A stretch of DNA of 64,000 nt. Source: Escherichia phage vB_EcoM_VR25. The notes under the pieces are model-generated. The model searched no databases. It was given only the letters and a program-made list of their open reading frames with translations, and had not been told where the DNA came from. The translations under genes and the position numbers were made by a program. The DNA lies in sequence record NC_028925.1; one strand, written 5' to 3'. Shown in pieces: positions 1-59,557 of the stretch; position 1 is the stretch's first letter; each line of letters opens with the position of its first letter.

Positions 1-58
1 CTTCACAGATTAGTGCACGGATTTGGTCTTCAATTTCTTTAACAGTTTTAGTAGTCAT
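1..58 (-). CDS. hypothetical protein, 5' fragment (gene continues beyond window start)
   Basis: ATG at 56-58 (minus) preceded by AAGGA RBS; open frame runs off the left edge (MTTKTVKEIEDQIRAL...). Confidence 0.3.
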   Translation of the reverse strand, partial: MTTKTVKEIEDQIRALICE

Positions 59-66
59 TTATTTCC

Positions 67-264
67 TTAGCATTCGTAAGAGGAGGACACCCAAGAGGTA
101 CCGCTAATAGTAATGCATCCATTATAAAGCGTGATATGCCTGTCTAAGTCACGAACACCGCTAATATAGATATCAGCTTCTTCACGTTCTTCTTTACAAA
201 TCTGGATAACATTTTCAATAGCCGCTTTAGCGGTACGGATTGCACAATCTAATTCACGAGACAT
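67..264 (-). CDS. small hypothetical protein, member 1 of WVSSSxEC C-terminal tail family
   Basis: ORF track 65 aa; AAGGA RBS upstream of ATG at 264; C-terminus ...GTSWVSSSYEC. Confidence 0.5.
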   Translation of the reverse strand: MSRELDCAIRTAKAAIENVIQICKEEREEADIYISGVRDLDRHITLYNGCITISGTSWVSSSYEC

Positions 265-273
265 AATATTTCC

Positions 274-555
274 TTAACATTCAGCAGAAGAGGACACCCA
301 ACCACCTTCTGCAAGGTCTGTGGTGTAGTCATGTTGGTTAACAATAGCATATTGGGCTTCACCGTAGTTTTCCCAATGTTCAAGGTCAGCTTTCAGGGCG
401 CCAGGAGAATAATAGTCACCGCCCATACCGCGAGCAGGGTATATATTAAAATGAGTCTCATATTTGTCTGCAATTTCCTCAGCGCGACGAATAGCTTCAT
501 GGATTTCTTTTACTGCGGCCAGAAGCTCTGGTTGGTTATGGTTATCATTCATCAT
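274..555 (-). CDS. small hypothetical protein, member 2 of WVSSSxEC family
   Basis: ORF track 274..756 trimmed to internal ATG at 553-555 (MMNDNHN...) because the upstream part overlaps the next gene; C-terminus ...GGWVSSSAEC. Confidence 0.45.
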   Translation of the reverse strand: MMNDNHNQPELLAAVKEIHEAIRRAEEIADKYETHFNIYPARGMGGDYYSPGALKADLEHWENYGEAQYAIVNQHDYTTDLAEGGWVSSSAEC

Positions 556-556
556 A

Positions 557-847
557 TTAACACATCTCAGAAGAGGAGACCCAAGCACCAACGGTAACAA
601 CCCCATTTTCAACTTTTCCACCGTTGGCTTCAATATGATGGGTAAACCATTCAGAGCATTCATAACCGACTGGGTGGTATGTACGACCTGTGCCGTAATC
701 GCCGGTGCTGAATTCAATGCCATATTCATCAGCGATTTCTTCACAATGTGTTTCAATTTCAGAGGTCTTATTTAGAAGAGAATAGATAGCTTTTTCTGCA
801 GATTTCTCATCATAATACTTAGGGATAGCGATTTCAATTTTATTCAT
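557..847 (-). CDS. small hypothetical protein, member 3 of WVSSSxEC family
   Basis: ORF track 96 aa; start ATG overlaps stop of upstream gene (ATGA); C-terminus ...GAWVSSSEMC. Confidence 0.5.
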   Translation of the reverse strand: MNKIEIAIPKYYDEKSAEKAIYSLLNKTSEIETHCEEIADEYGIEFSTGDYGTGRTYHPVGYECSEWFTHHIEANGGKVENGVVTVGAWVSSSEMC

Positions 848-1197
848 GATTTACATTCCTTAATAAAGGTTTCAAGGTCATTACGTTTTGTTTTGTTCAG
901 GAACTTATTATACTCAGCCATTGCCAAAGCGTATCTCTTACGGATGGGAGCATTCAAGGCGTTTGTGTAACAGATATCATACACAACCGGGATAAAATAG
1001 GCCACAACAGCCGGAGCAATTATCATAAAGAAGCCCATCTCAATAGGCATGACTCCCTCGATTGCAGCCATAACCGTTGTCATTACCAGGCCAACCAGGC
1101 CACCGAGCATAGCGGTGGCAATCCCTAATAATAAATTGGCACCAATATCATATTCAGCCAATTGATAAACATGTGATGCAAGACTAGGCCGTTCCAT
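844..1197 (-). CDS. small membrane protein (two predicted hydrophobic helices)
   Basis: ORF track 844..1290 trimmed to ATG at 1195-1197 with AAGGAGG RBS; hydrophobic stretches LLLGIATAMLGGLVGLVMTTVMAAI and FFMIIAPAVVAYFIPVV. Confidence 0.5.
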   Translation of the reverse strand: MERPSLASHVYQLAEYDIGANLLLGIATAMLGGLVGLVMTTVMAAIEGVMPIEMGFFMIIAPAVVAYFIPVVYDICYTNALNAPIRKRYALAMAEYNKFLNKTKRNDLETFIKECKS

Positions 1198-1543
1198 TAC
1201 GAACCTCCTTGATAAATTCTTCTGCACATTTAATTTTGTGCTCTTTTTGTAGGGAAACGCATTTTTGTTCCCACTCTTTAACTCGACCACGATATCCTTT
1301 ATTCATATGATTTTGATGCCACACATTTATCAATATCATACTCAGGACTGTAATAAAAGGAGCTGCAATTATTAGTGCCCAGGCGACTCCAACACTAATG
1401 ATATTCATATCCCCACAAAGCACCATCATTATAACCCCAACGATGCACATGGACAGAGCTCCAAATGGAGGCATAAGGTCTTTATCAATCTTGTCTGCGT
1501 ACACAAATTTTTCTGGTTTACCTGGCAGATATAACGTTCGCAT
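1184..1543 (-). CDS. small membrane protein
   Basis: ORF track 1184..1567 trimmed to ATG at 1541-1543; hydrophobic segments CIVGVIMMVL and VAWALIIAAPFITVLSMILI. Confidence 0.45.
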   Translation of the reverse strand: MRTLYLPGKPEKFVYADKIDKDLMPPFGALSMCIVGVIMMVLCGDMNIISVGVAWALIIAAPFITVLSMILINVWHQNHMNKGYRGRVKEWEQKCVSLQKEHKIKCAEEFIKEVRNGTA

Positions 1544-2072
1544 TTTGAACCCCTTTAGCGTATTCACGGCATTCTTTAATAAAACGATTAAGCTTACGCT
1601 GCTGTTTACGACTTTCTAATGTATATTCGTCGGCCAAAATAGTAAGCTCATCTTTATCGTAATTTTTAATATCAGAGTAAGATGGTCTACGGTCAACCAT
1701 TCCAAATACATCGCCATTTTCTAGCGCTACATAACATACTAAATGGTAATCATCATCTGCTATATTAAGAAGCACACAATCATCGCTCTCGTTTAACGCA
1801 TACACAGAATAGCGTAATCCAGCGAATTCCACTCGTTGAATACCCAGATTTACATCAATAATTTCCAAGGCATCTGCGAAAGAAAGGTCTTCAGCTAAAG
1901 CAAAAATAAAAGGCAATTTTGTAGTATCGCCACGGCTAGTTGTTCTTCTTAAGAAATCATTGGAATAACCCAAGTCACCGCGGATTCTGTAAAGAACTGT
2001 ATTAGTTTCAGTAGCAAGGCCACTACCGCCAAACCAGTCTACATTTGATATAAGGTCAGTATATAAGCTCAT
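1518..2072 (-). CDS. hypothetical protein
   Basis: ORF track 1518..2090 trimmed to ATG at 2070-2072 with GGAGAGGAG RBS. Confidence 0.5.
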   Translation of the reverse strand: MSLYTDLISNVDWFGGSGLATETNTVLYRIRGDLGYSNDFLRRTTSRGDTTKLPFIFALAEDLSFADALEIIDVNLGIQRVEFAGLRYSVYALNESDDCVLLNIADDDYHLVCYVALENGDVFGMVDRRPSYSDIKNYDKDELTILADEYTLESRKQQRKLNRFIKECREYAKGVQNANVISAR

Positions 2073-2093
2073 AATTTTCTCCTCTCCCAATTA

Positions 2094-2116
2094 GGGGGCA
2101 AAGCCCCCTTTATCTT
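2094..2116. terminator. GC hairpin GGGGGC-aaa-GCCCCC with T-run on plus side
   Basis: perfect 6-bp inverted repeat between two minus-strand genes; U-tract is on the plus-strand side, so function on the minus transcript is uncertain. Confidence 0.3.
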
Positions 2117-2708
2117 ACTTAAGTGAATTGATGTATTCTTCAATGTCAGCGGATGTGGTATCCACACCAACCTGTGGACCTTTGAAGGTTTCAACACGCA
2201 TCAGAGTGTCTTCAATATCAATCTTAGTCAATGCAGCGATTTCAACAACATCATCTGCGGTTGCAATACCTAGGGCAGACACCTTACGGGTTTCGCGGAT
2301 GTATTCCAGTTTAACAGCTAGTTCCTGACGAGAGTCATCCAGCTCTTTAACTTTCAATTTAATTTCATTACGCATTTCAACATAATCATCTGCCTTCTTA
2401 CGAAGTTGTTTAGCAGTGCGACGATACAGGAGACCCAGTTTAGCATGGACCTGGACATCAGCACCATCAGCAATCAGTTTACGAATTTCACGCTCTTTTG
2501 AAGCGGCGAGCTGGTCTTTTTCATTCGCTAACTCGCGGATGCGTTTTTCTTCATTAACAGACTTAACGTGGGCAGTCTGGAGCTCAGTAATCTTGTCAAT
2601 CAGGGTAGAAGCCGCTTTAGTATATTGGTCTTCAATAGACAGGTTTTGTGCCATTGCAGTACCCAGTTTGGAGCGGATGAATTCAACAAGTTTCTTTAAA
2701 GTATTCAT
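2115..2708 (-). CDS. hypothetical protein, probably coiled-coil (K/E/R-rich heptad-like sequence)
   Basis: ORF track 197 aa. Confidence 0.55.
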
Positions 2709-2784
2709 GGTATTTCCTTCAGTTGGTTAATGTTTTATTATCCAGGGAACATACTATCATGTTCCCGTTAAAGCGTACACTGAT

Positions 2785-3090
2785 TTAGATTTTATTTTCC
2801 TGCACACCATAGTAAAGTTCATCAGACACGATATTCAGGATGCGGCGAACATATTCATCATGGTAACGACATTCAAAATCAAATTCAACTGTAGTTTCTG
2901 CTTCACGAGTAAACTTAACAACCACATTCAGGTGGTTAACAACTTTAGTAAAGCTGTCAGTAAAGAATTCTTTTGCTACTGCTTGTTGTACTTGTACTTT
3001 GAACTTAGTGTTGCGAATCATGTTTTCAGCTGATGCGAAATTACCAGTTTTATCAAAGTCAACAAGCGCCAGGTTGATGATGAATTTCAT
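2785..3090 (-). CDS. hypothetical protein
   Basis: ORF track 101 aa; conserved leader ...ATACTGAGTTACCAAATAAAACTGGAGAATAAA-ATG directly upstream. Confidence 0.55.
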   Translation of the reverse strand: MKFIINLALVDFDKTGNFASAENMIRNTKFKVQVQQAVAKEFFTDSFTKVVNHLNVVVKFTREAETTVEFDFECRYHDEYVRRILNIVSDELYYGVQENKI

Positions 3091-3107
3091 TTTATTCTCC
3101 AGTTTTA

Positions 3108-3158
3108 TTTGGTAACTCAGTATGGAATCATTATGCCTTAAAGCAGGGGGCTTGTATA
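3108..3158 (-). promoter_or_regulatory. early promoter-like -10 (CATAAT) plus conserved leader cassette
   Basis: 24-mer TAACTCAGTATGGAATCATTATGC (plus-strand spelling) repeated at 3113, 3641, 4529; sits immediately upstream of the gene start at 3090. Confidence 0.45.
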
Positions 3159-3168
3159 CCCCCTTTTT
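3146..3168. terminator. GC hairpin GGGGG-cttgtata-CCCCC followed by TTTTT (plus side)
   Basis: inverted repeat read directly; lies between gene end 3172 and the promoter cassette. Confidence 0.35.
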
Positions 3169-3171
3169 GAA

Positions 3172-3615
3172 TTAAATTTCAAATTCTTTGCGGAAGTTGG
3201 AAGCATAAGATTGAACAGATGCTTTGTTGAATCCAAACTCACGCACAATCATATCAATAACAGCTCTGCGAGCAGCACCATTAGACATATTAACAGTTTT
3301 GAACATATCATAGCATAAATCTTTGTTGCTCATACCGGAGCGTTTAGGTGCCTTACGCTCAGCTTTTGGTTCAGCTTTAGGAGTAGGTTTAACTTCTGGT
3401 TTAACCTGCCCATCATTCAGACCTTTAAAAATTTTACCTGCCAGAGTTGCCAGTTTAGCAGCTTCACCACGAGTGATACCAAATACTGCCGGGTTAAATG
3501 AAATACCTTCAGCTGTCAGACGTTTGAAGAACATACGCGCTGCGGATTGCGCTTCAGCTTCAGAAGAGTTGTTTAATGCCAGTTTAACGTACTTAACCAG
3601 TTTTGAAGTTTTCAT
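3172..3615 (-). CDS. hypothetical protein; lysine/proline-rich linker; C-terminal domain shared with 4068..4493
   Basis: ORF track 147 aa; C-terminus ...AARRAVIDMIVREFGFNKASVQSYASNFRK. Confidence 0.55.
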   Translation of the reverse strand: MKTSKLVKYVKLALNNSSEAEAQSAARMFFKRLTAEGISFNPAVFGITRGEAAKLATLAGKIFKGLNDGQVKPEVKPTPKAEPKAERKAPKRSGMSNKDLCYDMFKTVNMSNGAARRAVIDMIVREFGFNKASVQSYASNFRKEFEI

Positions 3616-3635
3616 TTTATTATCCCGTTTGTTTA

Positions 3636-3686
3636 TTTGGTAACTCAGTATGGAATCATTATGCCTTAGTTAAATTCCAAAGTACA
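3636..3686 (-). promoter_or_regulatory. early promoter (-35 TGTACT, 17 bp, -10 CATAAT) plus conserved leader
   Basis: minus-strand reading; same leader repeat as 3108 and 4525. Confidence 0.45.
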
Positions 3687-3688
3687 CA

Positions 3689-3985
3689 TTAATTTTCAGA
3701 AGTTGGGAAATAAACTTCAAAGTCATACATGTTTACTACTGCAGATGCAATTGCTTGATACTGCATACCCAAGAAAGTTTTCTTGTTCTTGCGCCATAAG
3801 TTAACCATTTCTGTTTTGATGCATGCCAGAGAATAGTTGGATGCAGGATACTGTTTGATGATTGCAACAACTTCTTCAGAAGCAGTTTCGCACAATTCAT
3901 TCAGTTGAGCTTCAATTTTAGCAGAAATGATTGCTTTGTTTTCTTCTTGAGCTTGTGTAGCGTGCCATGCAGGTGCGTTAAACAT
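3689..3985 (-). CDS. hypothetical protein
   Basis: ORF track 98 aa; GGAG RBS; conserved leader upstream. Confidence 0.55.
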   Translation of the reverse strand: MFNAPAWHATQAQEENKAIISAKIEAQLNELCETASEEVVAIIKQYPASNYSLACIKTEMVNLWRKNKKTFLGMQYQAIASAVVNMYDFEVYFPTSEN

Positions 3986-4004
3986 TTTATTCTCCAGTGT
4001 TTTA

Positions 4005-4056
4005 TTTGGTAACTCAGTATGGGATAATTATACACTATCCCACCTGGAAGTAAAAC
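4005..4056 (-). promoter_or_regulatory. early promoter (-35 TTTTAC, 17 bp, -10 TATAAT) with -10 inside GGGATA/TATCCC inverted repeat, plus conserved leader
   Basis: minus-strand reading of 4021-4055; 23-mer TGGGATAATTATACACTATCCCA is an exact repeat of 6394-6416. Confidence 0.5.
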
Positions 4057-4067
4057 ACTTTTCTCAA

Positions 4068-4493
4068 TTATTTTTGAGCTTTGCGGAAGTTGGAAGCATA
4101 AGACTGAACAACAGTCTTTTTGATATCATGGGTGGTAACCAGAACATCAATCAGAGCGCGGCGTGCTGCATTATCATTCATATCAATTTCTGCAAATGCC
4201 TGGAAGCAAATGTCACGGGCGTTACCAGATTTGGACTGGATTTTTTCTTCTTTAACTTCTTCAATTGGGAATTCAATCATTTCAGCTTGGATTAATTCAA
4301 TGATGGATTCTTTTGACTGTTTGGTGTTTACCTTCAGTTCAGAATTAAGGGACTTAGCGATGGCAACAATCTGGGTTGAAGTCAGATGGATAAGTGCATC
4401 TTCACGAATACAGATTTCACATACTTCGTCGGCAACCATTTTGTTAGTGATGCGGGTAACAGAGAATGCAGAGGTCAGGGTCAGAAAGTTCAT
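4068..4493 (-). CDS. hypothetical protein; C-terminal domain paralogous to 3172..3615
   Basis: ORF track 4068..4574 trimmed to ATG at 4491-4493 (GGAG RBS) because a promoter/leader cassette occupies 4525-4573; C-terminus ...AARRALIDVLV...VQSYASNFRK. Confidence 0.5.
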   Translation of the reverse strand: MNFLTLTSAFSVTRITNKMVADEVCEICIREDALIHLTSTQIVAIAKSLNSELKVNTKQSKESIIELIQAEMIEFPIEEVKEEKIQSKSGNARDICFQAFAEIDMNDNAARRALIDVLVTTHDIKKTVVQSYASNFRKAQK

Positions 4494-4524
4494 TTTATTT
4501 CTCCAAAGTTTTGTTTGATTCAGT

Positions 4525-4573
4525 GTGTAACTCAGTATGGAATCATTATGCACCCGGTCAATTCGGATGTACA
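4525..4573 (-). promoter_or_regulatory. early promoter (-35 TGTACA, 17 bp, -10 CATAAT) plus leader
   Basis: minus-strand reading; shares the 24-mer repeat. Confidence 0.45.
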
Positions 4574-4611
4574 CTACTTTTTGAAGAAAATTTCAAATTT
4601 ATTCGGGGTAT

Positions 4612-4640
4612 AAAAAAGCCCCAACCTTTCGGAAGGGGCT
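4612..4640 (-). terminator. rho-independent terminator closing the tRNA cluster transcript
   Basis: hairpin AGCCCC-N12-GGGGCT followed on the minus strand by a U6 run (plus-strand A6 at 4612-4617). Confidence 0.5.
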
Positions 4641-4689
4641 AAGCCTTGCGGCAACCTTGTCGGGGTTCCACCTGCTAGGCAAGTGTTTG

Positions 4690-4783
4690 TACGAAACGCC
4701 GGGATTTGAACCCGGTTATCAAGTAGTTGACGCTACTCAATATTTTTAAAAGGCCATATCTCGACCATATCCGAACGTTCCGT
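4690..4783 (-). ncRNA. tRNA-like element (acceptor-like ends with G-U pair, T-arm CCGGG-TTCAAAT-CCCGG); type unresolved
   Basis: T-arm and acceptor complementarity read by eye; D and anticodon arms could not be folded canonically, so this may be a type II tRNA or a stable RNA like T4 species 1/2. Confidence 0.25.
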
Positions 4784-4957
4784 CAAAAACGCCACTCGGC
4801 TTACGGCAAAGATATTTCCTCGAATCGTTAATTAGGTGCGCCGTTTCAGCTGTGAAATAAGGGACTTTAAGAGGTCAACTCATGTACGCCTTAAAATCGG
4901 GTCTTATTCAGGGAACTTCAGTCCGACGACTTACCGGTAGCGACCCGGCTTCTTGTT

Positions 4958-5033
4958 TGGTCGAGACAGTAGGGATCGAACCTACGACCTAGGACTTAGA
5001 AGGTCCTTGCTCTTCCTTCTGAGCTATGCCTCG
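4958..5033 (-). tRNA. tRNA-Arg (anticodon UCU)
   Basis: full cloverleaf folded by hand: acceptor CGAGGCA/TGTCTCG, D arm GCTC-AGAAGGAA-GAGC, anticodon arm AGGAC-CTTCTAA-GTCCT, T arm GTAGG-TTCGATC-CCTAC, encoded CCA. Confidence 0.7.
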
Positions 5034-5034
5034 T

Positions 5035-5167
5035 GTTTGTTCATAGCGGGGTGGACTCGAACCACCAATATTAAGTCACTCATGCTCCAAGCATGCTAGG
5101 GCACTTACCCCGGACGGAATCGAACCGCATCTACAATACCTATCGCCATGATAATTTAAAATAAGTT
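5035..5167 (-). ncRNA. tRNA-like / stable-RNA candidate region carrying two T-arm-like motifs
   Basis: plus-strand spellings GGTGGACTCGAACCACC (5050-5066) and GGAATCGAACC (5117-5127) are reverse complements of GGTTCGANTCC T-loops; no canonical cloverleaf found by hand. Confidence 0.25.
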
Positions 5168-5241
5168 TGGTGGCCCTGGGTGGAATCGAACCACCATCCA
5201 GCGATTATGAGTCGCTCGCTTGACCGTCCAGCTACAGGGCC
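5168..5241 (-). tRNA. tRNA with anticodon CAU (Met, or Ile if C34 is modified)
   Basis: cloverleaf folded by hand: acceptor GGCCCTG/CAGGGCC, anticodon arm AGCGA-CTCATAA-TCGCT, T arm GGTGG-TTCGATT-CCACC, encoded CCA. Confidence 0.7.
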
Positions 5242-5301
5242 TTAATTCTATTATGAAAGGCTCTTTGAGGGAAGAACCTTTGGTAATAGAGGGTACTTAT
5301 T

Positions 5302-5327
5302 AATAATAACGCGTTTTTATTAAAGCA
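5302..5327 (-). promoter_or_regulatory. middle-promoter-like element (MotA-box-like TGCTTTA, about 11 bp, TATTAT) upstream of the tRNA cluster
   Basis: minus-strand reading; overlaps the stop codon of 5320..5799. Confidence 0.3.
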
Positions 5328-5799
5328 TATCAAGTGCTTTAACGTTCGGAATTTGGATTTCTTCTTCGATGATGTATAATTTTACCCACGAAACTACGCG
5401 CATAAAATCGCTATCATATTCCACTGGCTCGCCCAGTAATTCCTGGAGAGAATATAATAATTCAAATTCCTGGTCATTGTCACCTTCAACCAGGTTTTCC
5501 AGATTTTCAATACAAAGTGTTTTGTTAATGAATTCAGAAGTTAATTGACCAGATTTTACACCAGATTCAATGTGTGCGATAACCAAGTCTTTAACTACGT
5601 CCCATTCCGAATTGCCACATTTATCTGGATAGTTACAATGAGAACCTTGAAAAAGTTCCAGGATATATTTGTACTGCTGGATTTCTTGTTCTTCTACACC
5701 AAATATTGTCTGGGTTTTATAGTTGTCACCATCATTTTCCCAGGTTTCAATTTCAATCACATAACCTTTAGGGATGGTCTGACCAAATTTAATATTCAT
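5320..5799 (-). CDS. hypothetical protein (acidic)
   Basis: ORF track 5320..5805 trimmed to ATG at 5797-5799 with GAAGG RBS. Confidence 0.5.
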   Translation of the reverse strand: MNIKFGQTIPKGYVIEIETWENDGDNYKTQTIFGVEEQEIQQYKYILELFQGSHCNYPDKCGNSEWDVVKDLVIAHIESGVKSGQLTSEFINKTLCIENLENLVEGDNDQEFELLYSLQELLGEPVEYDSDFMRVVSWVKLYIIEEEIQIPNVKALDML

Positions 5800-5801
5800 A
5801 A

Positions 5802-6185
5802 TCAACCTTCATCAACAATAGTATGGGTATTGGCATTAACAATCTGCCACCAGTCAAAACGGTTAGAACCATAACATGGTTTATTCTCGTTTTCTTTAAT
5901 GATATCACGCAGTTCATCTTCAGTCGCAGCTTTTGCGATTAGGTCTGCATAACCGCCACGGGGATAATAGCTATCGCCAGCAAACAGTAAAAAGTTTGTT
6001 TTGATATTCTTGAATTCTTCAAGAGTAATAACCGTTCCAGATGGTTGTTGAACAATATCTACGTAACTATACCCCAATTGCTGGGCTTTATCTACCGCTT
6101 CAAGCAGGGTGTCATGTGCCCACCCAATTTGACATTCTGGTTTGTCAGATGGGTTTGCCTGATAATCCGCATACACTTTATACAT
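5802..6185 (-). CDS. hypothetical protein
   Basis: ORF track 5802..6233 trimmed to ATG at 6183-6185 with AAGGTGAG RBS. Confidence 0.45.
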   Translation of the reverse strand: MYKVYADYQANPSDKPECQIGWAHDTLLEAVDKAQQLGYSYVDIVQQPSGTVITLEEFKNIKTNFLLFAGDSYYPRGGYADLIAKAATEDELRDIIKENENKPCYGSNRFDWWQIVNANTHTIVDEG

Positions 6186-6186
6186 T

Positions 6187-6372
6187 TTACTCACCTTTAG
6201 ACATTTTATCCATAACGAAAGAGATTGAACCAATTAAGAATGCAACTACTAAAGAGATTATATTCTCAGAAGTTGAAAGCATATTCAACATAAAGCCAGC
6301 AAACATGCTAAAACCAAAAGCGGTAACAGCAACAAGGGCAGTAACATTTCTAATTAATTCACAACGTTTCAT
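6187..6372 (-). CDS. small hydrophobic (membrane) protein
   Basis: ORF track 61 aa; GAGGAG RBS; hydrophobic core VTALVAVTAFGFSMFAGFML. Confidence 0.4.
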   Translation of the reverse strand: MKRCELIRNVTALVAVTAFGFSMFAGFMLNMLSTSENIISLVVAFLIGSISFVMDKMSKGE

Positions 6373-6384
6373 TTTATTCTCCTC

Positions 6385-6430
6385 ATTAGTTGATGGGATA
6401 ATTATACACTATCCCATATCTAAAAGTACA
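6385..6430 (-). promoter_or_regulatory. early promoter with -10 TATAAT inside GGGATA/TATCCC inverted repeat
   Basis: minus-strand reading; exact 23-mer shared with 4020-4042. Confidence 0.45.
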
Positions 6431-6431
6431 C

Positions 6432-6665
6432 TTATTTTTTACGGAAAATTGATTTATACTTGTTAGCCCATTTCTCGATAACTTCTGCCGGACCCTGGAT
6501 AACAAAATAGTCCCCAAACTCTTCACCGCCGAGCTGACCGTAATTATCTAAGGCGTCGCGGAGAGTTCCATAAGGCATTTCGCCCATTTTATCTTTCTTG
6601 CCGGTGTAAATGAATTGCACTTTAACATCAGCAGTTTCATTAATAAATTCTTGATAAGTTTTCAT
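6432..6665 (-). CDS. internal-protein-like small protein with N-terminal capsid-targeting sequence (MKTYQEFINE)
   Basis: ORF track 77 aa; N-terminus nearly matches the T4 IPI/IPII/IPIII targeting peptide MKTYQEFIAE as I recall it; sits at the position of the T4 ipI locus (between tRNAs and 57B). Confidence 0.6.
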   Translation of the reverse strand: MKTYQEFINETADVKVQFIYTGKKDKMGEMPYGTLRDALDNYGQLGGEEFGDYFVIQGPAEVIEKWANKYKSIFRKK

Positions 6666-6674
6666 GTTGTCTCC

Positions 6675-6719
6675 AGTAGTTGATGGGATAATTATACTGC
6701 ATTTATCCCATCGTGTACA
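6675..6719 (-). promoter_or_regulatory. early promoter (-35 TGTACA, 17 bp, -10 TATAAT) with -10 flanked by GGGATA/TATCCC
   Basis: minus-strand reading of 6683-6719. Confidence 0.45.
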
Positions 6720-7019
6720 TTACATTTTTGAACCGCGAATTACACCATAAGCGGCGAAGTCGTCAGTGATATTTTTAGGGGTGTTCTTACCAGTTTCAAT
6801 ATATGCAATGCTGGATTTCTGACTAAATGAGGTAATTTTATTATAGTTAGAGTCAAGGAAGGTATAACCATTTTTACGCAGCTGGTCAAAGTCTTCAGCG
6901 TCGCCTTTACCTTTGAAGTCAACCCATTTGTATGTGTTTTTCTTCTGAAGGCCCAGAGGCCAAGTTTTTGCTTCTGCCAGGTAATTATTTTCTACCAAAA
7001 ATTCGTGGAACGTTTGCAT
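6720..7019 (-). CDS. internal-protein-like small protein with targeting-like N-terminus (MQTFHEFLVE)
   Basis: ORF track 99 aa. Confidence 0.55.
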   Translation of the reverse strand: MQTFHEFLVENNYLAEAKTWPLGLQKKNTYKWVDFKGKGDAEDFDQLRKNGYTFLDSNYNKITSFSQKSSIAYIETGKNTPKNITDDFAAYGVIRGSKM

Positions 7020-7027
7020 TTGAAATC

Positions 7028-7300
7028 CTATTTTAGATAAATTGCGTATTTTTTATAACCAGCTGTCTCATGGCGGAGACCCTTGTCATTGGCAAAACGC
7101 TCAATGTTGTTGATTTGGTTCTGGTCAAGTTCAGAGATGTCAAACGCGAAAAAGTTGCGTTTGTTACCAATTGTTATATGGTCAGTCAAGTCAATGCTGT
7201 ACAGGTGATTGATATTGTCAATCATAGCTTTGACTGCTTTACTAATTTTTACTTCTTCATTCAGTTGGGACTCGTTGAAAAGTTCATTAAAAGTTTTCAT
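7028..7300 (-). CDS. internal-protein-like small protein with targeting-like N-terminus (MKTFNELFNE)
   Basis: ORF track 90 aa; late-promoter octamer TATAAATA 13 nt upstream of the ATG. Confidence 0.55.
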   Translation of the reverse strand: MKTFNELFNESQLNEEVKISKAVKAMIDNINHLYSIDLTDHITIGNKRNFFAFDISELDQNQINNIERFANDKGLRHETAGYKKYAIYLK

Positions 7301-7308
7301 AAGAAACC

Positions 7309-7641
7309 TTATTTATACAGTTTAGCTAGTTCTTTACGTCCGCGAGCAGACATAATGAATTGTTCATCACCAATTTTGAAATAAGCCATACCGCCGTCAA
7401 CAGCGATGCCAATTTCTTTAGTACCTTCTTTGCCTTTCCACTTGCCACCAGATTTCAGGACAGCTTCAACTGCAGCTTTGGAATATTTGGACGTTTGAAA
7501 ACGTTCATTACCAATCTGAAAGAAAACACCATCTGCATTTTTGGATAAACCAAATTTCAGAGAGCCTTCACTATCATCAATTGATTTGGTTTCATTGATG
7601 GCGGATTCGGCTAAAAACTCGTTATAAGTCTTGATGTTCAT
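7309..7641 (-). CDS. internal-protein-like small protein with targeting-like N-terminus (MNIKTYNEFLAE)
   Basis: ORF track 7309..7674 trimmed to ATG at 7639-7641 with GGAG RBS. Confidence 0.5.
   Translation of the reverse strand: MNIKTYNEFLAESAINETKSIDDSEGSLKFGLSKNADGVFFQIGNERFQTSKYSKAAVEAVLKSGGKWKGKEGTKEIGIAVDGGMAYFKIGDEQFIMSARGRKELAKLYK
7310..7317 (-). promoter_or_regulatory. T4-type late promoter core TATAAATA
   Basis: exact octamer on the minus strand upstream of the gene starting at 7300. Confidence 0.4.
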
Positions 7642-7659
7642 TTTAACTCCGTTTGTTCG

Positions 7660-7701
7660 TGGGTGTAGGAACATAATACTGTGCCTACACTCATTTGTAC
7701 A

Positions 7702-7702
<1 letters not shown>
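7660..7702 (-). promoter_or_regulatory. early promoter (-35 TGTACA, -10 TATTAT) with -10 inside TGTAGG/CCTACA inverted repeat
   Basis: minus-strand reading of 7664-7702. Confidence 0.4.
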
Positions 7703-8386
<684 letters not shown>

Positions 8387-8387
<1 letters not shown>

Positions 8388-9064
8388 TATATTACCTTAT
8401 TAATTTTATCAAAAAGTTCTTCGAGTGTGCCATCGTTTTTAATAACAATGTCACTAGCTAGTGGTGGAAGTCCAGCTTCCGTAATGTGTGTATCAGTAGA
8501 ATGATTTGCTTCATCGCGTTCTACAAAGATTATTGTAGCACCCATCGCCCGAAGCGAATCAAGTTCGTTCTTTTGGCGAACATCTGGGACAACGTAATAT
8601 TTATATCCAGAATAGAGGTTGTCAAGATAATCGCATGCAAAAGTTTTAATCCAAAACATGCTGTCGAACTCTGTACAAACGATGTCAGTTCCAAGGGTCT
8701 GCATGAAACGTCTAACTGTCCAGGGCTCAACATTATTTAGTGTGTGAAATTCAATGATTTTACGAACCATATCTGGATTCGGAAGGTCAAGATTATATTG
8801 CTGTTTCAACCATTCAAGAGCGTCAACCAGAAGAATATGAGCTTCAGTGTTGTTCATTATCAAGGTTTTTTCACGGTCATAACCTTGTCCATCAAAATTT
8901 TCCAGGGTCAAATTGTGTGGCAGGTCTTGACGAACCCACGCTTTATAAAGCGCTTCTTTAATTGGACCAGCAAGTTGCCACTTTGTTCCGTTTTGACTAA
9001 TAACATAATCAGCAGTCGTATCTTTACCACTGCGTTTTTTACCCACAATCGCAATTAATTTCAT
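8387..9064 (-). CDS. 1: deoxynucleoside monophosphate kinase (gene 1)
   Basis: ORF track 225 aa; P-loop GKKRSGKDT near the N-terminus; conserved position. Confidence 0.8.
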
Positions 9065-9660
9065 ACGTTTCTCATAGATGGATGCATTGACTTAGACCTG
9101 ATTTCCTGTTGCATTGCTGCATTACTATCAATCTGTGGTCTACCTTCTATTATTATACCATCAATTTCTACAGCAAAAGACTTAAAGTTAAAAGTTGCTG
9201 TTGCATTGATAGCAGGGTCAGAATCTTCTTTATATGAATACTGAATCTCTGACAGGTCGGACGGCCATGCTCCATAGTAATGGATTGACATGACAATTTT
9301 GTCCTTGTTATTATCTAAGATATGAAGCGTGACCGCTTCGGGACGACCCTTTGGATGCCATGCTTTTGATTCGTGTGTGATGTAATTGTTAAGCGAGAGC
9401 ATCCATTTATAGATATCAAGCCATGCCCTTAGGTCTTTGTCACACAGAAAGTTAACAATCAGCGGGTCGAATTCTATTGTACTACCAGGAAGACTGGAGC
9501 GATTTATACCTTGCGTTCCGCCGGGGACATCTGTAACAGGGATGTGAACCCCTGGGAGGGTAACGTCTTGAACGTTGAGTTTAAAAGTCTGTGTGAGGTT
9601 TGAATCGCTTACCTCTAATATAAAGTTAGTCGTGTTAGTTTGATTATATAAACCTGACAT
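9061..9660 (-). CDS. 3: gp3 tail completion / sheath stabiliser
   Basis: ORF track 199 aa; position between genes 1 and 2 as in T4; sequence identity not independently recalled. Confidence 0.6.
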   Translation of the reverse strand: MSGLYNQTNTTNFILEVSDSNLTQTFKLNVQDVTLPGVHIPVTDVPGGTQGINRSSLPGSTIEFDPLIVNFLCDKDLRAWLDIYKWMLSLNNYITHESKAWHPKGRPEAVTLHILDNNKDKIVMSIHYYGAWPSDLSEIQYSYKEDSDPAINATATFNFKSFAVEIDGIIIEGRPQIDSNAAMQQEIRSKSMHPSMRNV

Positions 9661-9672
9661 AGTGCACCTTGT

Positions 9673-9710
9673 TTGCTTTAAACCAATCAGTGTTATAATG
9701 GTTCTAGACC
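9673..9710 (+). promoter_or_regulatory. middle-promoter-like element (TTGCTTTA, 13 bp, TATAAT, GGTTCTAGACC) oriented antisense to the HNH gene
   Basis: plus-strand reading; same TATAATGGTTCTAGACC core as the minus-oriented copies at 44704 and 52228. Confidence 0.35.
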
Positions 9711-9745
9711 TTTTGTCCTTACCAATAACACTGACCGATAATAGA

Positions 9746-10420
9746 TTATTTTATTAATGTGTTAAGTCTTAGCTTAGTCATAAACGGATAACGTTCCAAC
9801 ATTGGCTTTACCCAGTATCGAGGATGCAATTCCTTTTTATATGCTAGGACCAACTCTCGAGCTTGCTCGACGGTATCAACTCCGAAGTTTTTACACATTT
9901 CTTGCCTATCTTTTTCCCACCGGCGCTTTCTCAATTCATCCTGAATCTCTTTATTTTTAAAATGTCCATTATTGCGAGAATGTTTTGTGCCCTTGGTTGG
10001 ACTGTAATGTCTTCCTTTGACAAACCCATCCGGAACATCTTCCCATGGAAATAGTTTTATCGATTTGACACCATTAGTAAAGTAAACTTTACCGGTTTGA
10101 CTTTTAGAAATATTGTCAGCGTGTCTACGTCTTAACCAGCCAAATAATTTATTATTACGTTTCAAATACTTGCTTGACTGACTCATAGATGTGGCGGCAA
10201 AACTTAAACCTGGATTTGTAGGATATATTTTAACCAATAGTTGATGGGCTACATAATGTTCCTCGGGAGTCAAATCGACTAGGTTATCAGGAGCATTTGA
10301 ACCACCCATACATTTCGGAATGATGTGATGAGATTCTTTATATGAAATCAGGACCCTGTTACGGGCCCTTTCAATTAACGATGAATATATAAACTGATAA
10401 TTCAAAGTGAATTTCTCCAT
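9746..10420 (-). CDS. free-standing HNH homing endonuclease
   Basis: ORF track 224 aa; HNH motif [29 protein letters not shown]; basic C-terminal half; inserted between genes 3 and 2, which are adjacent in T4. Confidence 0.75.
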
Positions 10421-11238
10421 ACTTTCTGTGAAGAAAATCTTTTGCCTTTTGAAAAAAACTGCTGAAGGGGAAGTAATACCACATTTGCCCAGTCGCTGGG
10501 CTTGATTTCAGTGATAGTACCTTTTATATTACCAGGTATATATGCTTTAATCATCTGGTCAGCCCCTTTAAATCCCTTCACCTTTGACCAATCAATCTTC
10601 AGATGAGTCTTGTTCGTAATCGTAGGAGTATTAGCATATTGCTTAAGAAGTTCCTCAAGGAACTCTTGACGCGCCTTCGGTGGAATATAGTGCAAGTTCA
10701 AACCATACATCAAATTGTGTTTGCCTAACCCAAGATAAATGATTAACGGATATTTGTCCCAGTATGGAAGAGTATCCTTATGCTTTGCATCATAGATATA
10801 AGCATAAATCTTACCTGGTTGAGGTTTAGCCGTTACGTGTCCTCTGACAGCTTTCTTAATTGTCTCTGCGAACCATCTGGCAGATTTGGTGTTGCTTGCA
10901 GCGCCTTCGTTAGCAATCTTATCTCTTATACTCTTTCTAAAGCTATTCACCATTATCAGTTGGCGTTCAGTCTTCGTAAGTTTACCAGCAGGTTTCTTTT
11001 TGAGTTTGGATACTTTATAAGCAGTCTGAATTCTCGAATGATATCTTGACATGCTTTTGGTAAAGGTTGAATAGTTGATTCCTTTCTCTTCAGCAAACTT
11101 TTTCGAGGTCATTCCCTTTTCTTTTGCTGTATAAAATTCAACCCCTATCTCAACCCATTGTTGTTCGGATTTACTGGGTTTTGGACCTGGTTTATCTGCA
11201 GATTCATTGATAAATGTAAAAATACTCATCCTTTCCAT
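10402..11238 (-). CDS. 2: gp2 DNA end-protector protein
   Basis: ORF track 278 aa (T4 gp2 about 274 aa); conserved position. Confidence 0.7.
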
Positions 11239-11675
11239 CCTAATTTTTTCAGTGAGTTTTCAGTGATTATCCTGAACGTTATACCCATTTTATCTGCCGT
11301 AGATTGTGCAGCTTTCCATTTGTCCGAGTTAACAGCCCAGGTATACATCTCGTTAATAAATCTCTTTTTGCTCGCAGCGGTATTATTAACAGGTTTGGTT
11401 GGTGGTCTTGTTTCTTTTAATGGCTTAACTTCGAAAAAGAACTGTTGTCCTGTATCAAACTTAACCCAGAAATCCATATAATACCTGCGCTTTTTACCAT
11501 CGGCATTGCTAAAGTAAGGGATGATAACAGTCTCAGAACCCCATTGAACAACGTTCGGATGGTTGTCGAGCCATCTCATAAGCCATGCCTCCCAGCTTGA
11601 CCTGTATTGTATTTTCTTCCAGTCGCCCTTATATTTTTCTATATTAGTGGGCTTAAATTTCCCGGAGTATGCCAT
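11226..11675 (-). CDS. 4: gp4 head completion protein
   Basis: ORF track 149 aa; MAYSGKF... resembles T4 gp4 (about 150 aa). Confidence 0.8.
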
Positions 11676-11723
11676 ATAGCCTCCTAATAAATATTGATAT
11701 ACTTATTTATAAATGGAGGCTTT

Positions 11724-12326
11724 ATGCTTTTTTCATTTTTTAACCCAATTGATTATGATGCTAAAACAATCAGAAAAAACCCTGCATCATTGACGAAAGA
11801 AGATGTCTTAAGCATTCCAATGACAGACATCTTCAGAAATTATCGTGCTTACTTTGATAAGGTCGCGGTCAATTATACACCAAAAACCTATTACATCGCC
11901 GGAGCTCCGAGACCTGAAGAATTATCATATCAGCTTTACGGTAACACGCAGCTATATTGGGTTCTCCTTATGCTCAATGATATCTATGACCCTTATTATG
12001 GTTGGCTTTGTACCCAAGAAGCATCGTATCAAGCATCAATTCAGAAATATTCGAATGTCGGGGGTAATCAGGTCCTTTATCATGTGAATGAAGATGGTGA
12101 AAAGTTCTGGAACCTTGTTTCTTATCCTGATAATCCATACACATGGTACGATAAAGGTGACAAGAACAAATTATATCCACAATACGAAGGTCCATTAGCT
12201 GCAGTGGATATCTATGAAGATGCTATCCGTAAAAATGAATACAAACGCGAAATAAAAATAATCGACCCGGAAGATATTGAGTCATTTATTTCCGCACTTA
12301 TCCGTGAAATGGAGAAGGCGCTATGA
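11724..12326 (+). CDS. 53: gp53 baseplate wedge protein
   Basis: ORF track 11694..12326 trimmed to ATG at 11724 preceded by GGAGG; divergent from gene 4 as in T4. Confidence 0.8.
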   Translation: MLFSFFNPIDYDAKTIRKNPASLTKEDVLSIPMTDIFRNYRAYFDKVAVNYTPKTYYIAGAPRPEELSYQLYGNTQLYWVLLMLNDIYDPYYGWLCTQEASYQASIQKYSNVGGNQVLYHVNEDGEKFWNLVSYPDNPYTWYDKGDKNKLYPQYEGPLAAVDIYEDAIRKNEYKREIKIIDPEDIESFISALIREMEKAL

Positions 12327-20966: not shown

Positions 20967-20969
20967 CTA

Positions 20970-20991
20970 GGGACCTTCGGGTCCCTTTTTT
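20970..20991 (+). terminator. rho-independent terminator GGGACC-UUCG-GGUCCC plus U-run
   Basis: perfect hairpin with UUCG tetraloop followed by TTTTTT. Confidence 0.6.
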
Positions 20992-20995
20992 ATTT

Positions 20996-21003
20996 TATAA
21001 ATA
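20996..21003 (+). promoter_or_regulatory. late promoter TATAAATA
   Basis: exact octamer 28 nt upstream of the gene 9 ATG. Confidence 0.55.
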
Positions 21004-40596: not shown

Positions 40597-40614
40597 GCCT
40601 TAAAAATTAAAAAA

Positions 40615-40641
40615 GGGACCTTCGGGTCCCTTTCTTGTTTT
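40615..40641. terminator. bidirectional-looking terminator GGGACC-UUCG-GGUCCC flanked by A-run and U-rich tract
   Basis: hairpin read directly between gene 23 (+) and the convergent 97-aa ORF (-). Confidence 0.6.
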
Positions 40642-40934
40642 CATACCATACCATTTAAATGAACTTCTACCCGGCGCTTGATGAGGTCTCTGAAATTAAC
40701 ACTGTTCTCTTGAAGTTTCAACCAGTTACCTGATTTGTCTTTGGTGTGAGTAGAATAATTACCATTCCACCAAAAATCAGTATCATATGCTAAGTTTTCA
40801 TATTTTTTAACTAGTTTGTTCAGAGCATTACCATTAACACCATTTGGGTATTTGTTGACCAATGCAACAACTTCAATTTCCAGATTTTTAAAGGTATTCC
40901 GAAGGAAAGATACTTTGTTCATTTTAGACTCCAT
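40641..40934 (-). CDS. hypothetical protein (early gene embedded in the late module)
   Basis: ORF track 97 aa; own early promoter and conserved leader upstream. Confidence 0.5.
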   Translation of the reverse strand: MESKMNKVSFLRNTFKNLEIEVVALVNKYPNGVNGNALNKLVKKYENLAYDTDFWWNGNYSTHTKDKSGNWLKLQENSVNFRDLIKRRVEVHLNGMV

Positions 40935-40937
40935 TGT

Positions 40938-40988
40938 TTGGTAACTCAGTATGAAATCATTATGTCTTATCTTAATCGGGTTGTAAAC
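40938..40988 (-). promoter_or_regulatory. early promoter (-35 GTTTAC, 17 bp, -10 CATAAT) plus conserved leader
   Basis: minus-strand reading; leader GGTAACTCAGTATG shared with the cassettes at 3.1-4.5 kb. Confidence 0.5.
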
Positions 40989-40994
40989 AACTTT

Positions 40995-41002
40995 TATAAA
41001 TA
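40995..41002 (+). promoter_or_regulatory. late promoter TATAAATA
   Basis: exact octamer upstream of gene 24. Confidence 0.55.
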
Positions 41003-41027
41003 AAGTATATCACAAAAGGAAAGCGCA

Positions 41028-44617: not shown

Positions 44618-44703
44618 AATCTCTCACTTTTGATGTTATAAATATCATTATAAATTATACCCTCTATACTTTCTTTCTCTGAAAGGAATTAATCGTATCG
44701 GAA

Positions 44704-44740
44704 GGTCTAGAACCATTATACCACAATTTTATTTGAAGCA
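44704..44740 (-). promoter_or_regulatory. middle-promoter-like element (MotA-box-like TGCTTCA, 13 bp, TATAAT, GGTTCTAGACC) upstream of rnlB
   Basis: minus-strand reading. Confidence 0.45.
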
Positions 44741-44746
44741 AAAAGG

Positions 44747-45010
44747 TCAGAATTTTACATACAATGTTGGCTTGTTTTCTTGCCAATTATAATTCCAGGT
44801 AAATGATGTAAATTTTTCTGCCCGCAGAAAATCAGATATCTTTGTGCGGTTTCCTTCTTCATACTCTTTTTCAGAAACTGCCATATTAACAGCATCTTTG
44901 CCATTCTCGGCAGCGGCAATAGCCACTTTGCGAAATATAACAATAAAGTCATTTGCAACTTTATCTTGTGATTCTTTAGCCATTTGGCGTAGTTCTTCTG
45001 CGAATGTCAT
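44747..45010 (-). CDS. hypothetical protein
   Basis: ORF track 87 aa. Confidence 0.45.
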   Translation of the reverse strand: MTFAEELRQMAKESQDKVANDFIVIFRKVAIAAAENGKDAVNMAVSEKEYEEGNRTKISDFLRAEKFTSFTWNYNWQENKPTLYVKF

Positions 45011-52211: not shown

Positions 52212-52227
52212 AATGTATCCAATGTAA

Positions 52228-52264
52228 GGGTCTAGAACCATTATACAGCCATAAAATTAAAGCA
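52228..52264 (-). promoter_or_regulatory. middle promoter candidate for uvsY (MotA-box-like TGCTTTA, 12 bp, TATAAT, GGTTCTAGACC)
   Basis: minus-strand reading; T4 uvsY is known to have a MotA-dependent middle promoter. Confidence 0.5.
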
Positions 52265-59528: not shown

Positions 59529-59535
59529 AAAGAAA

Positions 59536-59557
59536 GGGACCCGAAGGTCCCTTTTTT
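59536..59557. terminator. terminator GGGACC-CGAA-GGUCCC with flanking A-run and U6
   Basis: read directly between gene 54 (+) and the convergent minus-strand genes. Confidence 0.6.

Follow-up and report, generated by a model that had tools for sequence, protein, structure and literature searches.

The window, a 64,000-nt stretch of Escherichia phage vB_EcoM_VR25 (NC_028925.1), comes from a T4-type coliphage of the genus Gaprivervirus (VR7-like). It matches VR7, VR20, TH22, CJ20, and others at 92-97% identity. This identity is patchy, as the relatives match only in pieces. The region of interest is a hyperplastic early segment between the e.x genes, tRNA genes, ip genes, and 57B. A repeated element is present in the window in five copies, named here cassettes A to E (Table 1). 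Each copy lies directly upstream of a small minus-strand open reading frame (ORF), and four of the five are in the tRNA-adjacent hyperplastic region. It is likely that these elements are composite regulatory cassettes of the promoter-early-stem-loop (PeSL) type, which recombine as promoter-gene modules.

The cassette family

The 24-mer TAACTCAGTATGGAATCATTATGC is found exactly at 3113-3136, 3641-3664, and 4528-4551. Its variants are at 4010-4033 (3 mismatches) and 40942-40965 (2 mismatches). The original prediction had listed the same five copies, and they are confirmed here as one repeat family, with coordinates shifted by 1-3 nt (4529 to 4528, 4013 to 4010, and 40943 to 40942). No match to the 24-mer was seen in 100 dinucleotide-preserving shuffles, with 0 expected by chance, and a repeat finder grouped the same five sites as one family, D4.

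On the minus strand, all copies show the same order: an A-tract of the AAAAAGT type, the -35 element GT(T/G/A)TAC, a 16-17-nt spacer, and the -10 element (C/T)ATAAT. The spacer is not conserved between copies and varies freely. In all five copies, the sequence 3' of -10 is GATTCCATACTGAGTTAC(C/A), followed by an A-rich stretch, GGAG (GGGA in B), and ATG. The near-invariant start region and leader, GATTCCATACTGAGTTACC.., runs on to the GGAG Shine-Dalgarno (SD) sequence and ATG, in accordance with what had been described for the leader. Copy-specific variants stay stable across genomes. The earlier reading of the copies as minus-strand early promoters was also supported; a promoter scan recovers the -35/-10 pairs of A, C, and D on its own, and B and E are recognized by direct reading.

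Logos of T4-like early promoters (Pe) extend as far as the start site and show an A-rich UP region, GTTTAC, TATAAT, and a preference for C at -3 to -1 (PMC1524935). The cassettes agree with this consensus in sequence, having the UP-like A-tract, the GTTTAC-type -35, the TATAAT-type -10, and C just before the start. Transcription is predicted to start at the A 7 nt after -10, because the C preference at -3 to -1 fits the CC-A after CATAAT-GATT. Like T4 early promoters, the cassettes are located 5' of early genes and novel ORFs, and an orthologous promoter is present upstream of T4 srd. Unlike the T4 logos, about one third of the early promoters here add ~22 nt of near-invariant transcribed sequence, and the -35 is mostly GTGTAC, not GTTTAC.

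Two other promoter classes were rejected. No conserved MotA box, (a/t)(a/t)TGCTT(t/c)a centred at -30, is present 11-13 nt upstream of -10 in the five cassettes, and they are not considered MotA-dependent middle promoters. Cassette A has the MotA-box-like TGCTTTAAGG, but it is 3 nt from -10. Phage RNA polymerase (T7-like) promoters are ruled out by the canonical -35/-10 geometry, the freely varying spacers, and the T4-type genome. The VR7 annotation includes genes for the control of host RNA polymerase (asiA, motA, gp55, alt, and modA/B) and no annotated phage RNA polymerase. Three MotA-box middle-type promoters were seen elsewhere in the window, at 9640-9712 (+), 44700-44770 (-), and 52225-52295 (-). 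They share (T/A)TGCTT(T/C)A, a distance of 12-13 nt, TATAAT, and the identical start region TATAATGGTTCTAGACC, which suggests a middle-promoter counterpart of the early cassette families (cf. "PmSL", Comeau 2014).

Table 1. Cassettes A to E, the neighbouring early-type promoter, and the genes that the cassettes are predicted to drive.
Feature	Position	Strand	Remarks
Cassette A	3091..3175	-	Upstream of ORF 2785-3090
Cassette A, -35 TATACA	3158-3153	-	In loop of GC hairpin 3145-3164
Cassette A, -10 CATAAT	3135-3130	-	17-nt spacer (scan 3158-3130); predicted start A 3123
Cassette A, SD, strong RegB-consensus site GGAGAATAAAA	3100-3090	-	
Cassette B	3616..3703	-	Upstream of ORF 3172-3615; SD GGGAU
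Cassette B, -35 (G)TGTACT	~3687-3681	-	
Cassette B, -10 CATAAT	3663-3658	-	Predicted start 3651
Cassette B, stem		-	Weak 6-bp TGGAAT/ATTCCA around -10
Cassette C	3986..4072	-	Upstream of ORF 3689-3985; RegB-consensus SD 3995-3985
Cassette C, -35 TTTACT	4054-4049	-	16-nt spacer
Cassette C, -10 TATAAT	4032-4027	-	Predicted start 4020
Cassette C, hairpin GGGATAG/CTATCCC	~4020-4042	-	Encloses -10
Cassette D	4494..4645	-	Upstream of ORF 4068-4493; SD GGAG
Cassette D, -35 TGTACA	4573-4568	-	17-nt spacer
Cassette D, -10 CATAAT	4550-4545	-	Predicted start 4538
Cassette D, upstream terminator hairpin	~4618-4639	-	Followed by T-run
Cassette D, leader		-	Private variant ..ACACACTGAATCA..
13-nt GGGCTTTTTTATA	4620-4608	-	Junction of 555-nt gene indel, in cassette D terminator tail
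Cassette E	40923..41004	-	Upstream of 93-aa gene 40641-40922; SD GGAGTC
Cassette E, -35 (G)TTTACA	~40988-40982	-	
Cassette E, -10 CATAAT	40964-40959	-	Predicted start 40952
Different early-type promoter GTGTAC..TAGTAT	2709..2784	-	8-bp hairpin GGGAACAT/ATGTTCCC encloses -10
101-aa gene, cassette A	2785..3090	-	phrog_7474, PHROG of unknown function
147-aa gene, cassette B	3172..3615	-	phrog_18416; VR7 version truncated
98-aa gene, cassette C	3689..3985	-	phrog_27242; polymorphic 297-nt module
141-aa gene, cassette D	4068..4493	-	phrog_9997; AF2 model pLDDT 84
93-aa gene, cassette E	40641-40922	-	Antisense between gp23 and gp24; ends at terminator 40614-40641

The cassettes are not unique to the window. 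When the 36-nt cassette core was used as a query against GenBank, matches were found in 43 phage records only. Each Gaprivervirus genome has 10-13 copies, without exception on the early strand. Morganella phage MP1 has the core in 5 places, Providencia phages have single copies, and IME341 and a few other Escherichia/Shigella phages have single weaker matches. A pattern scan of IMG/VR found only the isolates VR20, VR26, MP1, and IME341 and added no diversity to GenBank. MP1, which belongs to Gualtarvirus and infects Morganella, has five to six cassettes in its own tRNA-adjacent region. Their core is the same, CATACTGAGTTA(A/C)CAAA, and the sites are annotated as MEME-predicted promoters. The MP1 paper reports 12 promoters found with MEME and nothing further on promoters; a search of a literature library for VR7 promoters found no description.

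In the complete genome of VR7, 11 copies were counted. All 11 are on the early strand and intergenic, each with an SD and ATG at a fixed distance. They precede srd, ORF045c, nrdC.8, ORF098c, ORF145c, ORF146c, ORF147c, ORF190c, 30.8, ORF277c (which adjoins motA), and ORF287c. The ORF190c copy, between genes 23 and 24, corresponds to cassette E of the window. The presence of the cassette upstream of conserved genes (srd, nrdC.8, and 30.8), besides ORFans, indicates that the element is a genome-wide class and not a peculiarity of ORFans. T4 carries an early-type promoter at the orthologous position, upstream of srd, with an A-rich tract, GTTTACA, a 17-nt spacer, and TATAGT. This T4 promoter has a clearly orthologous distal leader but another start region.

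In a pattern census of VR7, ~32-33 early-type promoters were counted, practically all of them on the early strand. By start region, they comprise ~11 with the cassette-type CCATACTGAGTTAC, called family 1 here, ~11 with the related (C/T)ATCAACTACTG(A)GAG, and the remainder, which are individual. G directly follows the -10 in 26 of 33. A sister leader family, TATCCCATCAACTA(C/A)TG(A)GGAG, is present in the ip-gene region of the window downstream of early-type promoters, at 6374-6400, 6664-6690, and 10225-10251 on the minus strand (repeat D15). It was found in 713 Tevenvirinae records, including T4 upstream of trna.4.

Stem-loops are a signal at the level of the family. In MP1 and several VR7 copies, the spacer holds the reverse complement of the start region, which places the -10 in the loop of a 10-13-bp hairpin. 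In all 33 VR7 early-type promoters taken together, complementarity is higher between cognate than between swapped upstream and downstream halves (mean stem 5.76 versus 5.01 nt). The minimum free energy of the same promoters is -13.1 kcal/mol for the cognate and -10.3 kcal/mol for the swapped halves, and 0 of 5000 permutations reach the observed value. In family 1, complementarity of 6-11 nt between spacer and leader is seen in 7 of the 19 distinct copies, which 0 of 2000 spacer shuffles reach. In the window, cassette A has a GC hairpin over the -35, cassette C has a 9-bp stem around the -10 (z -1.4), and cassette D has a terminator and a spacer hairpin (z -2.3). The 5' arm of the inverted repeat is upstream of the predicted start, which would restrict hairpin formation to read-through transcripts and to single-stranded or cruciform DNA. 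This position is consistent with a role of the stem-loop as an insulator or attenuator.

The GC hairpins that had been assigned to the cassettes are of two kinds. The hairpin at 3145-3164 does belong to cassette A, with the -35 in its loop. The hairpin at 2093-2109, AGGGGGC-AAA-GCCCCCT, is real but is not part of a cassette. It lies between ORF 2115-2708 and ORF 1518-2072, directly before the SD of the latter and without a promoter. It is terminator-like on the plus strand only; on the minus (coding) strand, an SD and not a T-run comes next, which suggests an mRNA-stability or processing hairpin. Another hairpin, the terminator AGGGACC-TTCG-GGTCCC with a T-run, occurs three times in the window, at 20969-20996, 40614-40641, and 59535-59562. 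In VR7, the same GGGTCC-TTTTTTATTTT tail is found immediately 5' of several family-1 cassettes, indicating that terminator and promoter often travel together.

The strong RegB/S1 site has the consensus GG*AGRAYARAA, and secondary structure protects against RegB (PMC3014915). In cassettes A and C, the SD is a perfect match to this consensus, GGAGAATAAAA, and the ATG overlaps its last A; B, D, and E match the 11-nt consensus only partially. The window has 3 matches, all of them minus-strand SDs, versus 0.35 expected. In VR7, 9 of 9 consensus sites are on the early strand, and 7 are within 60 nt downstream of an early-type promoter, 5 of these in family-1 cassettes. The sites in A and C and in the five VR7 copies resemble T4 RegB sites, as they are SDs of early transcripts and their surroundings are A-rich and unstructured. 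They differ from T4 sites in the deviation of B, D, and E and in that cleavage here is predicted. The regB gene is encoded in VR7 and is not inside the window. With an early promoter and a RegB-consensus SD together, the cassette would confer immediate strong expression and then rapid RegB-mediated inactivation.

Gene-module junctions and duplications

The homologous region was compared across nine relatives, and homology blocks were mapped. The comparison of gene content between cassettes revealed gene indels with junctions at the cassettes. The modular gene shuffling suggested by the original prediction is seen in a 297-nt module that is present or absent, with the crossover in a shared leader, and in a 555-nt gene whose junction is in the terminator tail of cassette D.

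P479, TH40, and phage 212 are without the 297-nt gene (3689-3985). Their homology ends at window position 3662, the end of the cassette B core, and restarts at 3983, at the ATG below cassette C. The two homology blocks flanking the missing gene overlap by ~50 nt in the subject. These phages have a single hybrid cassette, C-type upstream up to TATAATTATCC and B-type downstream from CAAACGGGAT. At the nucleotide level, the upstream side of the hybrid matches C without a difference up to and including GTATAATTATCC, and everything from CAAACGGGATAATAAAATG on matches B in the same way. The C-type sequence 3' of the shared leader is ACACTGGAGAATAAAATG. The crossover is confined to the shared 22-nt leader CCATACTGAGTTACCAAATAAA, which is the sole possible place of exchange. 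The polymorphic segment consists of the 3' part of the leader, the SD, the 297-nt gene, and the -35, spacer, -10, and 5' part of the leader of B. It is a circular permutation of one cassette and one gene, which is the product predicted by the PeSL mini-circle model.

The full-length hybrid is present in 19 records, or ~16 distinct genomes, including SP18 and VR26, and intact B is present in 14 records. Comparison of three hybrid genomes placed the hybrids on at least 3 flanking haplotypes of single-nucleotide polymorphisms (SNPs), each closest to an intact genome. At the flanking variable sites, phage 212 is similar to VR20/CJ20, TH40 is similar to VR7 and the window, and P479 is distinct. All four combinations of the 297-nt gene indel and a 399-nt gene indel 900 bp away exist. 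The three hybrid genomes are not one lineage. The event has thus either happened more than once or been separated from its flanks by recombination, and each of these amounts to modular shuffling.

The 555-nt gene is located upstream of cassette D in P479, VR7, and others. On either side of it is GGGCTTTTTTATA, which is the 3' arm plus T-run of a terminator, a different one on each side; the window retains one copy of this sequence (Table 1). The 399-nt gene is an extra gene of P479, phage 212, and VR20 at the early-type promoter 2709..2784. Its junction (2766/2783) is inside this promoter with no evident flanking repeat, and a cassette-mediated origin of this indel was left ambiguous. Overall, 7 of 21 breakpoint clusters fall in early-promoter cassettes, which occupy 9% of the 9-kb region (p ~0.002 in a rough test). 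Homology breakpoints of the relatives cluster also at the sister-leader sites, 6397-6440 and 6636-6730.

Whole modules have also been duplicated. The proteins encoded downstream of cassettes B and D have a common C-terminal domain with 42% identity. A third paralogue with 39-43% amino acid identity is VR7 ORF277c, 97 kb away next to motA. Its cassette and cassette D have the same private leader variant, ..GTTACACACTGAATCA..AAAACTTTGGAGAA.., and together with the paralogy of the genes this indicates that promoter-gene units were copied between loci. The ~55-nt promoter-leader stays ~95% identical, while the paralogous proteins have diverged to ~40%. In cassette D and the VR7 copy next to motA (window 4534-4561, minus strand), the spacer includes TTGACC exactly 16 nt upstream of CATACT, a -10-like element in the conserved start region. 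This pair may represent a second promoter that overlaps the first, or a sigma-dependent pause element.

The D and B genes have orthologues in L035, a T4-like contig from a metagenome, with 55% protein and 67-69% nucleotide identity. Both orthologues are preceded by GGGCATAATGATTCCATACTGAGTTAC. Compared with the window, the -10/start block is identical at 27-34 of 36 positions, and the -35 and spacer at 10-17 of 31. The deeply conserved block extends from -14 to +22, GCATAATGATTCCATACTGAGTTAC.

Interpretation and rival explanations

PeSLs have been described in RB49/phi1 (Arbiol et al. 2010, PMC2839356) and in PST/T4 and nt-1/KVP40 (Comeau et al. 2014, PMC4122927). Like PeSLs, the cassettes are repeated intergenic motifs on the early strand, with an AT-rich tract, a sigma70-like -35/-10 pair at 17 nt, and an SD and ATG at the 3' end. 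Where a stem-loop is present, its position is variable; the copies are concentrated in hyperplastic regions, and indels are seen between sibling phages. The PeSL architecture that had been proposed for the window is supported, the stem-loops as a statistical signal of the family that varies from copy to copy. Subclasses of PeSLs are distinguished by the position of the stem-loop, upstream, over the -35, or over the -10, and the sequenced mini-circle crossovers of RB49 lie between the -10 and SD/ATG (PMC2839356), as do the crossovers in Gaprivervirus. There are also differences. The clade Gaprivervirus/Gualtarvirus is outside both PeSL papers. The most conserved part here is the -10 with a 20-25-nt start region and leader, not G-run/C-run stems, and the stem-loops are uneven and are often formed by pairing of the spacer with the conserved start region. 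For RB49-type PeSLs, mini-circles and promoter and terminator activity were assayed, whereas they are predicted for the cassettes of the window.

A further similarity is to the conserved flanks of the T-even ip locus (Repoila et al. 1994, as far as described in PMC4122927), where small interchangeable genes with their own promoters are arranged in tandem next to tRNA genes. A mechanism was not put forward for that locus by Repoila et al. The sister leader family sits in the ip region of the window (6374 and 6664); the genes flanked by family-1 cassettes are, in contrast, not ip genes.

In the proposed mechanism, the cassette would consist of four modules. An upstream stem-loop or terminator, which in many copies encloses the -35 or -10, would insulate the unit. 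It would be followed by a strong host sigma70 "T4-early" promoter with the A-tract, GT(G/T)TAC(A), 16-17 nt, and (C/T)ATAAT, at whose downstream edge are G and then CC before the start A. The third module would be the near-invariant, unstructured start region and leader AUACUGAGUUACC(A)AAUAAA, and the fourth the GGAG SD, in the best copies a perfect strong RegB/S1 site. Expression of the driven gene would start at once and end a few minutes later through inactivation of its mRNA. Because 22-50 nt are identical between copies, neighbouring or distant cassettes would recombine and excise or insert promoter-gene modules. The outcome would be presence/absence polymorphism among sibling phages and duplication of whole modules to other loci. 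Homologous recombination or mini-circles are the presumed mechanism of exchange. We estimate the probability that the elements are PeSL-type composite cassettes of a Gaprivervirus phage, recombining as promoter-gene modules, at about 0.8.

Several points weigh against this interpretation. Stem-loops in the window are uneven, being clear in A, C, and D, weak in B, and absent in E. Promoter activity, start sites, and RegB cleavage are predictions from the nucleotide sequence. Family-1 cassettes alone contain 3 of the 21 breakpoint clusters, which is not significant (p ~0.10), and a deletion in VR7 (window 1511-3426) ends inside a gene and is not cassette-mediated. For the 297-nt event, gain as well as loss, and a single as well as a repeated event, fit the present data. 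Of the idea that the flanked genes were recently acquired, what is shown is presence/absence polymorphism, which gain or loss may have produced. Finally, homology-driven exchange alone does not account for the conservation of the -14 to +22 block, put at 100% in L035, beside genes with 55% protein and 68.9% nucleotide identity. There must be selection on this block, or else conversion that acts on it repeatedly and goes no further. The depth of this conservation is the one feature not fully explained by existing descriptions.

The leading explanation for the conservation of the block is an optimised RNA polymerase contact and escape sequence, and a regulatory site is the other reading. The contact surface would comprise the -10, the discriminator G, the CC-A start, and the initially transcribed region, on which open-complex stability and promoter escape depend. 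The block has roughly the extent of the downstream half of the RNA polymerase open-complex footprint. It is kept in L035, where the -35 and spacer are scrambled, and both the prevalence of G after the -10 in VR7 and the wide distribution of the sister start-region family would fit such a surface. In T4 early promoters, further consensus regions without an explanation have been noted (Hinton 2010, PMC2988021). That this surface explains the conservation and recombination is incidental is possible, and we regard it as a tentative alternative. An early promoter can do without this sequence, as around two thirds of those in this genome are equally well formed and have a different start region, and the T4 start region differs at the orthologous srd promoter. 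Junctions inside the block create variation in gene content, which means that recombination has real consequences. The contact surface overlaps with the PeSL explanation and does not exclude it. A dedicated cis-regulatory site (operator or pause) in the block, which times or shuts off a sub-class of early genes, would explain a conservation that is deeper than that of the driven genes and flanking DNA and that crosses genera, but it is unlikely. It could be an early shut-off operator for a phage factor or a sigma70-dependent pause at CATACT (-1 to +5), either of which would give common timing to the sub-class; so specified, it is improbable. The shut-off of T4 early promoters is described as not completely understood (PMC3014915), and CATACT keeps A2 and T6 of the -10 and is paired with the upstream TTGACC in D-type copies. 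Against this, the proposal is entirely inferential, with no candidate binding protein identified, the block is not palindromic, and the sister family is without CATACT. A related reading, likewise unlikely, is that the inverted repeats with the -10 in the loop link promoter function and recombination through cruciform extrusion or its cleavage by Endo VII.

The remaining alternatives concern how the copies arose and what their leader does. Arbiol et al. (PMC2839356) leave open whether PeSL exchange is homologous or site-specific. The excised unit, a circular permutation of cassette and gene, is formally similar to an integron cassette, and hairpins overlap the sites. It is nevertheless very unlikely that the cassettes are sites of a dedicated, integron-like recombinase or targets of a homing endonuclease. 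The VR7 annotation shows no apparent integrase or recombinase gene, and the second junction uses another repeat, the terminator tail, as expected for homology-driven exchange. General recombination is very active in T4-type phages. The near-identity of the copies over 24-36 nt and the clustering of four of them might be taken as a sign of passive remnants of recent duplications, without function or selection. This is hardly credible, because the spacers and -35 flanks adjoining the block are saturated with differences, the copy-specific variants are stable across genomes, and all copies are on the early strand at a fixed distance from the SD and ATG. The persistence of the block in another genus (MP1) and in L035, beside diverged genes, rules out a passive recent duplication. 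A conserved 5' untranslated region is a common signature of RNA elements, but the least probable of all these readings is that the leader is a structured RNA, such as a riboregulator or a processing hairpin in its own transcript. Folding of the five predicted leaders gave -0.9 to -2.7 kcal/mol, which does not surpass shuffled sequences (z +0.35 to +1.38), and the 5' arm of the inverted repeat, upstream of the predicted start, would be absent from the promoter's own transcript. An Rfam search of window 1-12000 (E<=0.1) returned two tRNAs, one weak chance match, and no leader RNA family. The weak match, to the Plastid-ycf2 5' UTR at 5170-5241 (+), scored 35 bits against a gathering threshold of 65.7 and is antisense to tRNA-Met; it is almost certainly due to chance.

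PeSL-type cassettes are thus documented here in Gaprivervirus/Gualtarvirus, and the comparative evidence from genome sequences supports their role as exchange points of gene modules. PeSLs have been proposed as the gene-shuffling engine of T4-like hyperplastic regions, a proposal that rests on three phage pairs. The window adds a fourth, independent lineage with ~30 sequenced siblings. In this lineage, one module varies independently of SNP haplotypes at a distance of a few hundred bases, and another was copied to a locus 97 kb off. The clade is well suited as a natural system in which to measure the rate at which cassettes move accessory genes, among them perhaps genes for anti-defence or host range. 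It also raises a question not described before, why the start region is conserved above the adjoining coding sequence, though two thirds of early promoters do without it. As a compact, portable expression unit that would be strong early and quickly silenced, the cassette could serve phage engineering.

Flanked genes and other features of the window

The original prediction regarded the flanked genes as ORFans. All of them belong to PHROG families of unknown function, which agrees with it; the same cassette precedes conserved T4-type genes in VR7, and in this respect the description was too narrow. Searches of Pfam and of Protein Data Bank (PDB) sequences with the flanked genes found no match. 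For the D gene, 19 unnamed homologues were found in a search of 5.8 billion proteins. Its AF2 model, which is reasonably confident, has no significant match among PDB folds and matches uncharacterised viral proteins only, including those of MP1 and VR7 ORF277c. One D-gene homologue is in L032, an unrelated 45-kb phage contig, indicating horizontal spread. The B gene, the D gene, and VR7 162326-162541 form a three-member paralogue family of small early proteins with a common ~60-aa helical C-terminal domain. They are candidates for accessory or anti-host proteins.

Between the cassette D terminator and tRNA-Arg is a ~310-nt stretch without ORF, 4641-4957 (-). It includes a perfect tRNA-like T-arm, CCGGG-TTCAAAT-CCCGG, at 4699-4715 on the minus strand, which was called by neither ARAGORN nor Rfam. 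The stretch may be a decayed tRNA or a small RNA similar to T4 "species 1/2". It is conserved in relatives at window 4826-4953.

Two features were observed far from the early segment. Long collagen-like GXY repeat arrays with 9-nt periodicity are present at 45446-46525 (+). They correspond to VR7ORF196w, a collagen triple-helix repeat protein, between 24.3 and the hoc paralogues. The capsid vertex gene 24 is tandemly duplicated, at 41028-42308 and 42309-43592 (+), encoding 426 and 427 aa. The two copies, repeat D6, are 74% identical and are annotated as 24(1)/24(2) in VR7.

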